Positions 245-23,567 of a DNA stretch of 42,479 nucleotides are shown piece after piece (within the stretch, counting starts at the first letter, position 1; each line of letters starts with the position of its first letter). Below the pieces are notes generated by a model. That model was given only the letters and a program-made list of their open reading frames with translations. It was not told where the DNA came from and did not search any database. The stretch lies in the IMG/VR virus record IMGVR_UViG_2939127364_000002. One strand, given 5' to 3'. The translations under genes were made by a program, and so were the position numbers. The stretch is from a virus (Duplodnaviria > Heunggongvirae > Uroviricota > Caudoviricetes).

Positions 245-267
245 ATAAAAAACCGCCATCAGGCGGC
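245..267 (-). terminator. Rho-independent terminator at the end of the early-left operon
   Basis: Minus-strand hairpin ccgcc-(4 nt loop)-ggcgg followed by T-tract (A-run 245..252 on plus strand). Confidence 0.6.
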
Positions 268-426
268 TTGGTGTTCTTTCAGTTCTTCAATTCGAATATT
301 GGTTACGTCTGCATGTGCTATCTGCGCCCATAGCATCCAGTGGTTATAGCAGTCGTTGATGTTCTCTGCTTCGATAACTCTGTTGAATGGTTCTCCATTC
401 CATTCACCTGTGACTCGGAAGTGCAT
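259..426 (-). CDS. Hypothetical small protein (55 aa)
   Basis: ORF MHFRVTGEWNGEPFNRVIEAENINDCYNHWMLWAQ... not in the track (under 60 aa); GGAG 8 nt upstream of ATG; stop lies in the terminator loop. Confidence 0.3.
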   Translation of the reverse strand: MHFRVTGEWNGEPFNRVIEAENINDCYNHWMLWAQIAHADVTNIRIEELKEHQAA

Positions 427-4411: not shown

Positions 4412-4774
4412 TTACCTGGCTGTCAGTTGTTTTGATTTCCGGTATCCTGCCGCGTAAATGGCTACGTTTGGAAGACATACACCAGTTTCTGGTTGCTTAT
4501 GTCCAAACTCATTCGCGTACACAATGGCTGCTCTCTCCAGATTGCGTCTGTATTCTTTCTGTTGCCAGATCACGTCCTGTGCCATGAACTTAATTGGCTT
4601 AGCGTCTTCTATGCGCTCAGGCGTTTCGTGAGTACCTTTAGCCTGAATCTGCGCTCTGCTTAGAGTAGGGCGGTGTAATACTTCTGAGCTTGCCGTAATC
4701 TCATTCTGGAGCGCTGCACGACGCTCACGACGACGACCTGATGCTGAGCCATTGAAAGCTGTTCTGCGTGTCAT
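4412..4774 (-). CDS. N: N-like transcription antiterminator
   Basis: Arginine-rich N-terminus ...GRRRERRAALQ... resembles the lambda N arginine-rich motif; first gene left of the oL region; AGGAGG 7 nt upstream of ATG. Confidence 0.65.
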   Translation of the reverse strand: MTRRTAFNGSASGRRRERRAALQNEITASSEVLHRPTLSRAQIQAKGTHETPERIEDAKPIKFMAQDVIWQQKEYRRNLERAAIVYANEFGHKQPETGVCLPNVAIYAAGYRKSKQLTAR

Positions 4775-4961: not shown

Positions 4962-5005
4962 TTTATCGAAATGATAAATCAATGGCAATAGCAAAATGAT
5001 AAATT
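4962..5005. promoter_or_regulatory. oL/pL operator region
   Basis: Two copies of ATGATAAAT (4972..4980, 4996..5004) plus TTTATCG at 4962..4968; the same motif recurs at oR. Confidence 0.5.
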
Positions 5006-5181
5006 CCTTTGGTTTTCAAATATCGTATTGATTCTTATGGTGTTTTATTTTGTTGTAGGAATCCGACAGGATAAATAAAGAGATTTGAGGGAGATCTGGA
5101 TTGCGTGGTTTAGTGAGTTGTATCTGTTTATTTTTCAACAAATACAATTGGTTATGTGTTTTTAGGTGGGGGGATCGTGAG

Positions 5182-5217: not shown

Positions 5218-5838
5218 TTAATGCTGGGGAGTGATTTTTTTGTTGTCTGTTGGCTGGGTATTTTGTGGCGGCGCTTGCAAAGTGGAAGGCTGTTGCAAAG
5301 GTGCGTGGTCTGACTTTAAAGCTGATACCAGCCCGGGAATCGCAACTATTACAGCGATAATGACACTAAAAATGGCTAATCGTATAGAAATACCCGACTG
5401 AACACCACTAATTGCGGTATTAACCCCTGTTATTTGTCCTTGAATTCCTTCGAATCTCCCATTAATTGCTTTTATATCGCCAGCAGCGCTATCCATCTTT
5501 CCATCGATCTTGGACGATAGAGAGTTTATGGCTGCATTAAGTGATGCAAATTGGACATTAACGCTTTCACGAGATAGAGCCATGTCAGCCCTAATGGAAG
5601 AAGCAATAGACTCCATCTCTGCTTTATTAGCAGCTAAGCGAGCATCAAGTTCCTCTCTGCTGATCGTTCCCACTTCTTCCTCCGTTTGTGGCGGTTTTAT
5701 GTAATTATTTTGCACCTTGGTGGGAGAATTATCAAATTCAGCCTCAAAATAGGAACCGCCAACAACCTTCAACCTCCGGCTTTCAGATATGTTGGTGTCT
5801 TGCTTTCCATGATTATTTAAATTGCTGTCGTCACTCAT
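5218..5838 (-). CDS. Membrane-anchored coiled-coil protein of unknown function (206 aa), distal gene of the cI operon
   Basis: Polar N-terminus, heptad-like central region, single hydrophobic segment IRLAIFSVIIAVIVAIPGLVSAL near the C-terminus, Pro/Gln-rich tail; ATGA overlap with the upstream gene. Confidence 0.6.
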   Translation of the reverse strand: MSDDSNLNNHGKQDTNISESRRLKVVGGSYFEAEFDNSPTKVQNNYIKPPQTEEEVGTISREELDARLAANKAEMESIASSIRADMALSRESVNVQFASLNAAINSLSSKIDGKMDSAAGDIKAINGRFEGIQGQITGVNTAISGVQSGISIRLAIFSVIIAVIVAIPGLVSALKSDHAPLQQPSTLQAPPQNTQPTDNKKITPQH

Positions 5839-6269
5839 AATAGCTCTACGGTGAAAAATGATTCATTTTTATGAAGTTCATTTTTAGGGTCTTCATTATC
5901 CTGCAATATCCCTATAACACTATACAGCCCTTTAGCTGGGACCCTAATTTCTTTCAATGTTACTATTACCTGTCCGCCAACCCCTGTTTCAAAATGGCTA
6001 TCTTTCGTATCGATGAAAAGTGAAACTGATTCCGAAGAGCCGTCAGGGAATTGAATTTCCTCACCTTTTTTTATAATTAGGTGCGCGGGGATTACCATAA
6101 TACCCAAATTATATCTTGAATTTGGTTTCAACCCGATCATACCAACCCTGAAATCAATTGATAGCCGCGCAGGAAATTCATTGCATGTAAAATTAAGCGT
6201 CGGTTGGTTGGGTTCTTCGCTGCTATCAAATGGGGTTATAAAAGATATTCTTTCTAAATTAAGTGCCAT
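5835..6269 (-). CDS. Hypothetical soluble protein (about 144 aa) between cI and the membrane protein
   Basis: Start placed at ATG 6269 (MALNLERISF...) with AGGAG 5 nt upstream; track start 6323 has no good RBS; no family recognised. Confidence 0.55.
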   Translation of the reverse strand: MALNLERISFITPFDSSEEPNQPTLNFTCNEFPARLSIDFRVGMIGLKPNSRYNLGIMVIPAHLIIKKGEEIQFPDGSSESVSLFIDTKDSHFETGVGGQVIVTLKEIRVPAKGLYSVIGILQDNEDPKNELHKNESFFTVELL

Positions 6270-6370
6270 AAATTCTCCTGCATCGCTGTATGCTCTACGA
6301 GCATCTCGGCGACTTATCATCACCCAAACGTCTCTTCAGGCCACTGGCTACCAGCTATGTGACGATGAAG

Positions 6371-7075
6371 TCACGAATTTTTCAGCCACTCCCTTGCCTC
6401 GATGTCATCCAGATGGCGAGATTGCTTCAGAATACCAGCCACATACTCCACCTTTGCTACTTGATGATAAGGCAACGTTATAGGCCTGTGGTCCTGGTTA
6501 ATGCTTGTAAATTGGTATTCTCCATCTCTGTCATAGCCAAGAACCTTAATCATGTTGTGTCCTTCAACGGTTCTGACAAACACCTCATCACCCGGGAATA
6601 CTTTGGTGTTAGGCTCAATGAGTACATATTCTCCTGATTTTATTCTGGGCCACATGCTGTCTCCTTTCACACGAAGACCAAAGGCATCTGGATCATCGCT
6701 ATAAATTTTGAGCCACCCATCGCGCTCTTCGGTCATCTCGATGGCACCATCAACACCAAGAATTGCCTCACCAACCACGCGCACTAACCCTTTTCTTACC
6801 TGACCGACAAAAGTTAAAGAATCTGAGCATGATGCAATTGGTGTTACATCATGCACCAAATCAAGCCACCCATTAGGTAACCCAAGTGCGGCTTCAAATT
6901 TTCTTGCTAGTTTATCCCCTATGTTTCGAGTGCTTTTTTCACCGGAGACTTGCGTGAGTTGAGAAGGGCTAACCCCAAGCTTATCGGCAAAGCTTGCATT
7001 AGTGTTACCCGCGATTTTTTTATGCTCATCTAGCAAAAACGCTAGATTTGATTTGCGAATATCTTTGTTTTCCAT
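6371..7075 (-). CDS. cI: CI-type prophage repressor (HTH plus S24 LexA-like autopeptidase domain)
   Basis: N-terminal HTH ...SFADKLGVSPSQLTQV...; C-terminal ...GDSMWP... serine-lysine dyad signature; divergent from cro across the operator region. Confidence 0.9.
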   Translation of the reverse strand: MENKDIRKSNLAFLLDEHKKIAGNTNASFADKLGVSPSQLTQVSGEKSTRNIGDKLARKFEAALGLPNGWLDLVHDVTPIASCSDSLTFVGQVRKGLVRVVGEAILGVDGAIEMTEERDGWLKIYSDDPDAFGLRVKGDSMWPRIKSGEYVLIEPNTKVFPGDEVFVRTVEGHNMIKVLGYDRDGEYQFTSINQDHRPITLPYHQVAKVEYVAGILKQSRHLDDIEAREWLKNS

Positions 7076-7100
7076 CCCACAATTTTCCCTCTATTTAGCA

Positions 7101-7180
7101 AATGGATAAATACGCAATATGATAAATTTACATTGCGGTTGATTTATCAAAATGGTAAAGTTATTCTGTATGATAAACGG
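7101..7180. promoter_or_regulatory. oR/pRM/pR operator region
   Basis: TGATAAA at 7120..7126 and 7171..7177, inverted TTTATCA at 7143..7149, GGATAAA at 7104..7110; lies between divergent cI and cro. Confidence 0.55.
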
Positions 7181-7188
7181 AGGCACTA

Positions 7189-7422
7189 ATGAGTAATGAA
7201 CTACTACGCTGGCGAAAAGAGGCTTCTAGTGAGGAATGGAAGCGACTCGCCGCATTAGCGAAAACTTCAGTTGGCTATCTTGACCAGATTGCATATGGAT
7301 TTCGAAGAGCTTCCCCTGATAAAGCGAATGCAATCGAAGAAGCTACTCGTAATTTCACGGGTTATAAACCTGTGAAAAAGGAAAACCTGGTGTTCGTATC
7401 GCGTAGAGCATCGGCAGCATAA
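7189..7422 (+). CDS. cro: Cro-like repressor (77 aa)
   Basis: Small basic protein, first rightward gene after the operators; GGAGG 6 nt upstream of ATG. Confidence 0.75.
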   Translation: MSNELLRWRKEASSEEWKRLAALAKTSVGYLDQIAYGFRRASPDKANAIEEATRNFTGYKPVKKENLVFVSRRASAA

Positions 7423-7558: not shown

Positions 7559-7855
7559 ATGACACAAGCAAGTTACAGCAAGCCAACACAGCGAGAAATT
7601 GATCGCGCTGAAACTGATTTACTCATCAACCTGTCAACGCTTACCCAGCGCGGTCTGGCAAAGATGATTGGCTGTCATGAATCGAAGATAAGCAGAACGG
7701 ACTGGAGATTTATTGCTTCGGTCTTGTGTGCTTTCGGAATGGCATCAGACATCAGTCCGATTAGCAGGGCTTTTAAGTATGCGCTTGATGAAATCACAAA
7801 GAAAAAATCCCCGGCCGCCACCGAGGATTTTAAGCAAATTGATATGCAATTCTGA
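7559..7855 (+). CDS. cII: CII-like transcriptional activator
   Basis: HTH ...LTQRGLAKMIGCHESKISR...; C-terminus KKKSPAATEDFKQIDMQF parallels lambda CII KKRPAATERSEQIQMEF. Confidence 0.8.
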   Translation: MTQASYSKPTQREIDRAETDLLINLSTLTQRGLAKMIGCHESKISRTDWRFIASVLCAFGMASDISPISRAFKYALDEITKKKSPAATEDFKQIDMQF

Positions 7856-7887: not shown

Positions 7888-8049
7888 ATGACAAAACGTC
7901 GTAAGAAATACCAGGAAAAAGAAGAGATTCGACACCCTGATTCACCTGAGGGATTAGTGGTAGCCGCAGCAAATAACAGGGCGTTCGCAGAGCGCCTTGT
8001 TGGTGTTTACAGACTAGCCAAAGCAGGAGTGAAACATGGGCGTCGTTAA
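7888..8049 (+). CDS. Hypothetical small basic protein (53 aa)
   Basis: MTKRRKKYQEKEEIRHPDSPEGLVVAAANN... with AGGAG 6 nt upstream; not in the track. Confidence 0.3.
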   Translation: MTKRRKKYQEKEEIRHPDSPEGLVVAAANNRAFAERLVGVYRLAKAGVKHGRR

Positions 8050-8098
8050 ATTAGCTGATTACAGGCATAACCCTGTACAACATCAGGAGGCATCCAGT

Positions 8099-8926
8099 AT
8101 GGGGTATGTCTCTATACACCGCCAGTTTATGGACAGCAGGCTCTATAAGGACTCTCAGGCAGTACATCTTTGGCTTCACTTAATCCTCAAGGCTAATCAC
8201 GAATCTACTGTCGTCAATACGGATATCGGTCCGATAACTGTTGATCGCGGTCAGATGATAACTGGACGCCCGTCGCTGGTCAGAGAAACATTCATCCCCG
8301 ACAACAAAGTTCGGAGCTTATTACGGACTTTTGAGTCGAAAGGTATGCTTAATATTTGCTCGATGGGGAAGAAATTTAGCCTGTTTACAATCGTTAAATA
8401 TGACGATTTTCAGGCAAAAAATTGTCCAACGGTTGTCCAACGGTTGTCCAACGCAAACACCAGTAATGGCGCGGCTCTCAGCGGAGATTGTCCAACGGTT
8501 GTCCAACGGTTGTCCATAAACAATAATATAAATAATATCTCTAATACTGACGTATTAGAGAGTGCCACAGCAGACAAAAAGTCTGACAAGAAAAAACCTT
8601 CCGTTAGCTGTCAGGATGTTGTCGATGCTTACCACGAAATCCTTCCTGAAGCGCCAAGAATCCGCGCACTGAATGACAAGCGTAAAAACCAGATCCGAAC
8701 GTTCTGGCGCAAAGCCGGAGTGATAACCCGCCAGCTTGACGGGCATGGGTTCACGATGCAGGACTGGAGAAATTATTTGAGCTACGTTGGCGAAAATTGC
8801 CGATGGATGTTCGAAGAGCGCCCAAACCATCAACGCGGAACCGTCTGGCACAAAAAGGGATTTGATTTCCTGCTTAACGATAATACCTACCTGAAAGTTC
8901 GTGAGGGTGAACACGATGACCGATAA
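8099..8926 (+). CDS. Replication initiator, O-like
   Basis: Start placed at ATG 8099 (MGYVSIHRQF...) with AGGAGG RBS instead of track start 8036; ori-like iterons lie inside the gene; followed by the helicase gene. Confidence 0.7.
   Translation: MGYVSIHRQFMDSRLYKDSQAVHLWLHLILKANHESTVVNTDIGPITVDRGQMITGRPSLVRETFIPDNKVRSLLRTFESKGMLNICSMGKKFSLFTIVKYDDFQAKNCPTVVQRLSNANTSNGAALSGDCPTVVQRLSINNNINNISNTDVLESATADKKSDKKKPSVSCQDVVDAYHEILPEAPRIRALNDKRKNQIRTFWRKAGVITRQLDGHGFTMQDWRNYLSYVGENCRWMFEERPNHQRGTVWHKKGFDFLLNDNTYLKVREGEHDDR
8422..8517. repeat. Replication origin iterons: two clusters of three tandem 11-bp repeats (TTGTCCAACGG)
   Basis: Copies at 8422..8454 and 8488..8517 (last copy partial), then AT-rich stretch 8515..8560; all inside the O-like gene. 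Confidence 0.7.
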
Positions 8927-22361: not shown

Positions 22362-23567
22362 ATGGCGGTTGATATTAAAGATGTCGAACAGGTCGCGCAG
22401 GAGCTGCAGCAGAAGTTTGACGACTTCAAAGCAAAGAACGACAAGCGCGTTGAGGCGATTGAGCAGGAAAAAGGCAAACTTGCCGGGCAGGTGGAAACCC
22501 TGAACGGGAAACTCAGCGAGCTGGAAAATCTCAAAAGCGACCTTGAAAAAGAGCTGCTTGAGCTGAAACGTCCGGCAGGTGGTGCGCAAAATAAACTGGC
22601 CACAGAGCACAAAGAGGCGTTTGTGGGCTTTCTGCGTAAAGGCCGTGAAGACGGTCTGCGCGATCTGGAGCGCAAGGCATTGCAGGTGGGCACCAATGAA
22701 GACGGCGGCTATGCCGTGCCGGAAGAACTGGATCGCAACATTCTCAATCTGCTGAAAGATGAAGTGGTGATGCGCCAGGAAGCCACGGTGATCACCGTTG
22801 GCGGTTCCGACTACAAAAAACTGGTGAATCTGGGCGGCACGGCTTCCGGATGGGTTGGCGAGACTGACGCGCGCTCCCAGACTGCCACCTCAAAACTGGG
22901 ACTGATTGAACCTTTCATGGGGGAAATCTACGGTAACCCGCAGGCCACCCAGAAAATGCTGGATGATGCTTTCTTCAACGTGGAGGCCTGGATCAACAGC
23001 GAGCTGGCAACCGAATTTGCCGAACAGGAAGAAATTGCCTTTACCACCGGCGATGGTGCCAAGAAGCCGAAAGGGTTCCTGGCGTATGAGTCCACTGCTG
23101 AAACCGATAAGGTTCGTGCGTTCGGTAAACTTCAGCATATTGTATCCGGTGAAGCGACGACGGTGACCGCAGACGCCATTATCAAACTGATTTACACGCT
23201 GCGTAAGGCACACCGCACTGGCGCGAAGTTCATGATGAACAACAACAGCCTGTTTGCCATCCGTCTGCTGAAAGACACCGAGGGTAACTATCTGTGGCGT
23301 CCGGGGCTGGAGCTGGGGCAACCGTCCTCTCTGGCGGGTTACGGTATCGCTGAAAACGAACAGATGCCGGATATCGCCGCTGATGCGAAAGCTATTGCAT
23401 TTGGTAACTTCAAACGGGGTTACACCATCGTTGACCGTATCGGTACCCGCATTCTGCGTGATCCGTACACCAATAAACCGTTTGTCGGTTTTTATACCAC
23501 CAAGCGCACCGGCGGCATGCTGGTCGATTCGCAGGCCATCAAACTGCTGAAGATTGCAGCGGCGTAA
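22362..23567 (+). CDS. Major capsid protein (HK97 fold) with N-terminal scaffolding-like coiled-coil domain
   Basis: 401 aa; coiled-coil N-terminus (...KLAGQVETLNGKLSELENLKSDLEKELLELK...) then capsid core; AGGAG RBS. Confidence 0.9.
   Translation: MAVDIKDVEQVAQELQQKFDDFKAKNDKRVEAIEQEKGKLAGQVETLNGKLSELENLKSDLEKELLELKRPAGGAQNKLATEHKEAFVGFLRKGREDGLRDLERKALQVGTNEDGGYAVPEELDRNILNLLKDEVVMRQEATVITVGGSDYKKLVNLGGTASGWVGETDARSQTATSKLGLIEPFMGEIYGNPQATQKMLDDAFFNVEAWINSELATEFAEQEEIAFTTGDGAKKPKGFLAYESTAETDKVRAFGKLQHIVSGEATTVTADAIIKLIYTLRKAHRTGAKFMMNNNSLFAIRLLKDTEGNYLWRPGLELGQPSSLAGYGIAENEQMPDIAADAKAIAFGNFKRGYTIVDRIGTRILRDPYTNKPFVGFYTTKRTGGMLVDSQAIKLLKIAAA

Follow-up and report, generated by a model that had tools for sequence, protein, structure and literature searches.

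Between its divergently oriented cI and cro genes, the prophage described here carries several TGATAAA-type elements in both orientations, and additional copies of the 9-mer ATGATAAAT occur to the left of the cI operon. A sequence-only reading of this DNA took such elements to be the likely half-sites of the repressor operators, arranged in a manner that sets the immunity of the phage. The questions raised by the locus are whether the repeats are indeed read by the repressor, which immunity group they specify and where the individual operator sites begin and end. Positions given below are those of the window, i.e., the whole stretch of 42,479 nucleotides (42.5 kb) that was analyzed.

The genomic setting is that of a lambdoid immunity region. 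In the segment 4400-7900 of the window the order is N, oL/pL, cargo, cI, oR, cro and cII (Table 1), with divergent cI and cro genes on either side of a multi-site operator. Another operator is situated at pL and precedes N, as in the CI/Cro architecture of the lambdoid phages. The predicted CI protein joins an H-19B-type N-terminal DNA-binding domain to an S24 autocleavage domain at the C-terminus. Its helix-turn-helix domain found no Pfam match at E <= 0.01 and, among CI N-terminal domains of solved structure, was matched only weakly, and the names of the clusters to which CI, Cro and N were assigned do not mention H-19B. The two cargo ORFs are without a PADLOC hit or a Pfam function, and the families that they match, phrog_5893 and phrog_5820, are of unknown function. 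They occupy the slot between cI and oL that is filled by rexAB in lambda; in other phages this slot holds ORF20-22 (BP-4795) and HicABC (mEp506), both of these phages being homoimmune with the prophage, or stk (933W). Farther to the right, an O-like replication gene (8036..8926) contains 11-bp units (TTGTCCAACGG) in two clusters, at 8421-8461 and 8487-8527, each with three units in tandem; these are presumably the origin iterons.

Table 1. Genes, operator sites, promoters and motif copies of the immunity region, in window coordinates
Feature	Position	Strand	Sequence	Evidence and remarks
N-type antiterminator	4412..4774	-		Pfam N_peptide; 120 aa, arginine-rich motif GRRRERRAAL
pL (predicted)	4988-4960	-	-35 TTGCCA (4988-4983), 17-bp spacer, -10 TAAAGT (4965-4960)	promoter scan, 9/12 matches; faces N
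OL1	4962-4978		TTTATCGAAATGATAAA	one palindrome mismatch; top PWM score in window; GQ499358 annotation
OL2	4987-5003		AATAGCAAAATGATAAA	palindrome and PWM scans; GQ499358 annotation
OL3 (weak site)	5019-5035		AATATCGTATTGATTCT	GQ499358 annotation
Terminator	5211-5190	-		downstream of cargo ORFs
Two cargo ORFs	5218..6323	-		162 and 206 aa; co-oriented with cI, between cI and oL
cI repressor	6371..7075	-		234 aa; Pfam Peptidase_S24; PHROG transcriptional repressor families
oR intergenic region	7076-7188			113 bp, between cI and cro
OR3	7094-7110		TTTAGCAAATGGATAAA	palindrome and PWM scans; GQ499358 annotation; 19 bp upstream of cI start codon
OR2 (favored placement, "OR2a")	7110-7126		ATACGCAATATGATAAA	PWM rank, family conservation; abuts OR3
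pR (predicted)	7133-7161	+	-35 TTGCGG (7133-7138), 17-bp spacer, -10 TAAAGT (7156-7161)	read from sequence; mirrors pL
OR1	7143-7159		TTTATCAAAATGGTAAA	palindrome and PWM scans; GQ499358 annotation; fills pR spacer and start of -10
OR0 (fourth OR site)	7161-7177		TTATTCTGTATGATAAA	GQ499358 annotation; fits four OR sites stated for H-19B
cro	7189..7422	+		77 aa; identical to BP-4795 Cro; cluster sources: Cro/YdaS superfamily
cII	7559..7855	+		Pfam Phage_CII
Exact copies of the 9-mer	4971, 4996, 7119	+	ATGATAAAT	the three copies within oL or oR
Exact copy of the 9-mer	425	-	ATGATAAAT	outside oL and oR
Degenerate copy	7104		GGATAAA	
Degenerate copy	7153		TGGTAAA	

The repeats are not spread uniformly over the window. 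The 9-mer ATGATAAAT occurs four times, compared to 0.52 copies expected from shuffled sequence, and the heptamer TGATAAA 13 times (6.2 expected), with five of the 13 copies crowded into the ~200 bp of oL and oR. Both the elements in the two orientations between cI and cro (7120 and 7171 on the plus strand, 7143 on the minus strand) and the two further 9-mers to the left of the cI operon (4971 and 4996, with TGATAAA at 4972 and 4997) are present as had been claimed, and the two intervals quoted for them are correct: 4962..5005 spans OL1 and OL2, and 7101..7180 contains OR2, OR1 and OR0 in full together with the greater part of OR3. A repeat finder that was independent of the motif search detected a 16-nt direct repeat (4964/4989) and inverted repeats at 7094-7111/7142-7159 and 7143-7149/7171-7177.

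The proposal that the heptamer is a half-site has held up, with its unit redefined. The operator is a 17-bp imperfect palindrome, TTTATCA-N3-TGATAAA, of which ATGATAAAT represents the strong half with an extra base at each end, and a C at position 6 and a G at position 12 are common to all seven sites. The inventory of motifs in the earlier reading was accurate and incomplete; OL3, the weak halves and OR0 are additional. Allowing for up to 3 mismatches, the palindrome has seven matches in the window (1.7 expected), five of which are located in oL or oR, and in a scan with a position weight matrix (PWM) only one 17-mer from outside the operators scores above any of the five operator sites.

The local base composition, 67-68% A+T in both oL and oR, suggests a different explanation for these repeats, i.e., that they are promoter or AT-rich structural elements (-10-like hexamers, UP elements) of three promoters packed into AT-rich DNA. 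Overlaps with -10 hexamers do exist at OR1 and OL1, and the OR3 left half, read on the cI strand, is TGCTAAAT, which is like an extended -10. Mononucleotide shuffles of the oL and oR segments, which preserve the local AT content, speak against this explanation in that they yielded a mean of 0.098 copies of TGATAAA (maximum 2 in 20,000 shuffles) as compared to the five observed, as does the 17-bp dyad symmetry of sites whose centers vary. A further argument, from the behavior of the half-sites in related phages, is given below, and we regard the promoter explanation as highly improbable.

Outside the operators, similar sequences appear to be fortuitous. The copy of ATGATAAAT at 425-433 is part of TTTATCATCTCCATAAA (425-442), which overlaps the start of a small ORF, 259..426(-), and its ribosome-binding site. 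The module around this copy is common to lambda and 283 phage records, including phages of other immunities (lambda, 933W), and the copy is therefore attributed to chance and rejected as an operator. The PWM-scoring 17-mer that overlaps this copy, at 426-442, was rejected with it as a chance match, and ATTATCAAACTGATTTA, at 23178-23194 and apparently within coding sequence, was rejected as probably so; TTAAGCAAATTGATATG, at 7830-7846 in the 3' end of cII, is probably due to chance as well. An upstream region of pckA with homology to an H-19B OR3 was reportedly described by Chen et al. in 2005; the operator sites of the prophage match the pckA upstream region at 11-13 of 17 positions at best, a level of similarity that carries little information.

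The immunity group can be assigned by comparison with phage H-19B (AF034975), to which the cI/oR/cro segment is 98.1% identical. The same segment is 98-99% identical to those of BP-4795, AU5Stx1, ST2-8624, mEp506 and many Stx1a phages, all of which differ from the prophage in the cI-oL cargo and the remainder of the genome. CI matches H-19B CI (AAD04644) at 233 of 234 residues, the sole change being N233S at the C-terminus, and Cro matches its H-19B counterpart at 76 of 77. The oR regions differ by four substitutions in 113 bp (7077, 7139, 7163 and 7170) and the oL regions by five in 115 bp (4958, 4969, 4980, 5007 and 5008), all of them outside the strong half-sites. H-19B also differs in its cI-oL cargo, at nine residues of cII and in its N allele, which encodes 127 aa with the motif RSRRRER, as compared to the 120 aa and GRRRERRAAL of the prophage. 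Homology to the H-19B-type phages begins only at ~4846, which places a mosaic junction between nutL/N and oL. None of the differences from H-19B would be expected to alter immunity.

Operator sites for this immunity type are already on record. In GenBank entry GQ499358 ("immunity region; similar to bacteriophage H19-B"), seven 17-bp features, OL1-3 and OR0-3, are labeled as repressor binding sites. Six of them coincide exactly with the palindromes that we found independently, and the 17-mers of this entry differ from those of the prophage only at the center of OL1 and at two bases in the weak half or spacer of OR0. Entry KU238070 likewise carries explicit operator annotations. A review (PMC8065619), citing Shi & Friedman 2001 (Mol Microbiol 41:585), states that the H-19B OR consists of four operator sites and attributes to that study the binding of repressor to the H-19B sites; knowledge of this binding and of the four-site OR comes from that review sentence and from GenBank annotations of unknown rigor. 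On the strength of these sequence comparisons we are confident that the prophage belongs to the H-19B immunity group; its operators are of the already described and annotated H-19B type and are not a discovery of this analysis.

Natural variation among related phages provides a separate line of evidence on which bases matter. With the CI N-terminal domain as query, 92 related loci were retrieved, 55 of which encode an N-terminal domain identical to that of the prophage and constitute a homoimmune set with 21 distinct oR variants. Recurrent polymorphisms in this set fall in none of the 42 strong half-site columns of oR and in 17 of the 71 other columns (Fisher p = 2e-4), where they affect site centers, the spacers between sites and the weak halves of OR2 and OR0. 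OR3 is invariant among the 21 variants save for one singleton and OR1 save for one central-base change; OR0 retains its TGATAAA half and is polymorphic in its left half. The TTGC and TAAAGT of pR are also invariant in the homoimmune set. The wider family comprises 33 distinct types of N-terminal domain that are 49-65% identical to that of the prophage CI. Across these 33 types the offsets of the sites from the cI start are fixed, and the half-sites carry 1.7-1.8 bits of information, as compared to 0.63 bits for the OR3 center and 0.46 bits for the stretch from OR2 to the -35; the OR2 and OR1 centers (~1.4 bits) and the pR -35 itself (1.51 bits) are fairly well conserved.

In most of these relatives, e.g., Klebsiella phage vB_Kpn_Chronis, TGCTAAA/TTTAGCA takes the place of TGATAAA/TTTATCA. 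The replacement is concerted and involves seven half-sites: both halves of OR1 and of OL1, the right halves of OR2 and OL2 and the left half of OL3. All seven are of the G-type in 17 distinct configurations, and mixed cases are few. The H-19B group has six T-type halves (TTTATCA/TGATAAA) and one exception, the right half of OR1, TGGTAAA; a few other relatives are T-type throughout. In G-type relatives both halves of OR1 are switched (TTTAGCA/CGCTAAA), as are both halves of OL1, and the left half of OL3 alternates between ATATC and TTAGC next to a conserved right half, TGATT. Operators and repressors thus vary together, the T/G switch running across the 33 types of N-terminal domain. Such a joint change would be expected if a co-evolving protein reads the sites, and not if they were AT-rich promoter DNA. 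It extends to the right halves of OL2 and OR2 and the left half of OL3, none of which overlaps a promoter hexamer.

Covariation of this kind leaves room for a different reader, with Cro or another factor encoded next to cI as the main protein on these sites and CI recognizing something else. In the window, and likewise in the examined Klebsiella relative, cro adjoins cI. Any covariation of cro with the sites could therefore equal that of cI, and covariation does not tell the two proteins apart as readers. Counting against this idea are the designation of the sites in GQ499358 as repressor binding sites and the existence of T-type relatives (e.g., the one at locus L011) with a different gene start downstream of oR and an unchanged site architecture. 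To our knowledge, CI and Cro share their operators in every lambdoid phage that has been studied, which also weighs against a main reader other than CI, and we consider such a reader very unlikely. Near-identity to H-19B, the annotation of GQ499358, the sparing of strong half-sites by recurrent polymorphism and the concerted switch in relatives all support the half-site interpretation; we think it very probable, from these sequence relationships, that the repeated motifs are the strong half-sites of H-19B-type operators that the prophage CI binds.

The wider comparison also bears on how operator specificity may have evolved. It appears that the repressor family may be split into classes by a single base pair, position 5 of the half-site being either T:A or G:C. 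The G-type relatives, which include Chronis and prophages of Pantoea, Enterobacter and Citrobacter, share with the prophage the cI N-terminal family (at 49-65% identity), the site offsets, the hybrid nature of OR3 and the left half of OL2 (AATAGCA, fixed in most relatives); they differ in having the TGCTAAA/TTTAGCA half-site and in lacking OR0. This last site is specific to the H-19B group, and the corresponding region of the G-type relatives is unconserved. OR3 combines a G-type left half (TTTAGCA) with a T-type right half (GATAAA), and this hybrid state prevails in both classes, the exceptions being a few T-type relatives with a T-type or variant left half. OR3 may therefore be half-cognate in most members of both classes, in which case it would be weak by design. 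Among the residues of the recognition helix, no single one tracks the T/G switch across the 33 types.

The position of OR2 is the one point on which the palindromes and the databases diverge. Public annotations disagree with each other, GQ499358 placing the site at 7118-7134 and KU238070 at 7115-7131, and neither interval fits the palindrome. When a PWM was built from the other six sites, with OR2 itself left out of the training, the 17-mer at 7110-7126 ranked 9th among the 42,463 17-mers of the window and the GQ499358 OR2 ranked 1750th; the latter agrees with the consensus in only 8 of its 17 bases. At 7110-7126 conservation across the 33 repressor types extends to both halves, and the half that reads TGATAAA covaries with the switch. 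The right half of 7118-7134, on the other hand, is polymorphic (7128, 7130 and 7131) among phages whose CI DNA-binding domains are identical and carries 0.46 bits across the family (7128-7132). With this placement, moreover, TGATAAA would be shifted by 2 bp from the register of a left half and would have the wrong orientation for one. Because of its PWM rank, and because the right half of the annotated interval is polymorphic and unconserved in the family, we favor 7110-7126 as the predicted OR2.

The annotated placement has features of its own to recommend it beyond its entry in GQ499358. A site at 7118-7134 would lie 25 bp from OR1 and overlap the -35 by 2 bp, mirroring the disposition of OL2 relative to OL1 and to the pL -35. 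If PRM starts near 7085, as inferred, the site would also precede that start by ~41 bp, a lambda-like distance. The conserved ATAYGCA of 7110-7126 would then serve PRM, and 7110-7126 would not be a dimer site. Weighed against the conservation pattern, and against the KU238070 annotation at yet another position, this alternative seems rather unlikely to us. With the favored OR2 at 7110-7126, oR may be organized as two abutting pairs, OR3 with OR2 (centers 16 bp apart) and OR1 with OR0 (18 bp), the pairs being separated by 33 bp. The combined proposal that OR2 is misplaced in the databases, oR being two abutting pairs, and that the family is divided into T:A and G:C classes at position 5 is offered tentatively, as a possibility somewhat short of probable.

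The promoters pL and pR overlap operator sites. OL1 overlaps the -10 of pL, the left end of OL2 overlaps its -35 by 2 bp, and the right half of OL2 covaries with the switch. The predicted pR fell below the threshold of the promoter scan, its -35 matching at 3 of 6 positions only. OR0 is centered on the predicted start of pR, directly upstream of the Shine-Dalgarno sequence of cro. On the cI strand, the left half of OR3, TGCTAAAT, resembles an extended -10 and forms part of a candidate PRM element, TGCTAAATA (7100-7092). A PRM start near 7085 is problematic in that the GAGGG Shine-Dalgarno sequence would be truncated.

From this layout, and by analogy with other lambdoid phages, a plausible regulatory scheme can be drawn. 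CI, a helix-turn-helix protein with an S24 autocleavage domain, would bind as dimers to the 17-bp TTTATCA-N3-TGATAAA pseudo-palindromes, and Cro dimers presumably share these operators. Repression of pR would be exerted through OR1, over the spacer and -10, and OR0, over the start site, with OR2 lying upstream of the -35; repression of pL would involve OL1 at the -10 and OL2 touching the -35, with OL3 situated further upstream. OR3, adjoining the cI start and covering the probable position of PRM, would provide for negative autoregulation. Occupancy of the operators would keep pR and pL off in the lysogen and define its immunity, and RecA-stimulated self-cleavage of CI would relieve the repression.

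The H-19B-type cI/oR segment is by no means confined to this prophage. It was found in 215 of 5,426 complete E. coli genomes (4%), at 242 places, all of them chromosomal, and ~27 E. coli genomes carry two prophages with immunity of this type. The operator layout would set both the immunity of such prophages and the ease with which they are induced, and in Stx phages of the H-19B type induction bears on the release of toxin. For the window itself, the outcome is a confident annotation of oL, oR, pL and pR and the assignment to the H-19B immunity group; comparative evidence on the location of OR2 and on a shift of specificity within the repressor family is a more modest addition.

Set beside lambda, the prophage exhibits the same general plan, with 17-bp pseudo-symmetric operators that each consist of a consensus and a non-consensus half, sites that overlap the hexamers of pR and pL, a weak OR3 adjoining cI, oL and oR ~2.2 kb apart and a self-cleaving S24 repressor. 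It differs from lambda in that the operator sequence is unrelated, that OR has four sites instead of three, and that the center-to-center spacings are unusual, with 16, 33 and 18 bp in OR (with the favored OR2) and 25 and 32 bp in OL; two abutting pairs of sites in oR would be unlike the lambda geometry. With 933W the relationship is modular: residues 81-234 of the prophage CI are 94% identical to the C-terminal domain of 933W CI, and the N-terminal DNA-binding domains do not align. The annotated operators of 933W are 15-bp features, three of them in oR, and its OL has two operator sites according to the review mentioned above (PMC8065619). The C-terminal domain of 933W CI is reported not to support cooperative binding, and H-19B CI is presumed to be alike in this respect (PMC3202840). 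A non-cooperative C-terminal domain of the 933W type may explain why spacings unlike those of lambda are tolerated in this immunity group, and an oR made up of two abutting pairs, if true, would fit a repressor of this kind.
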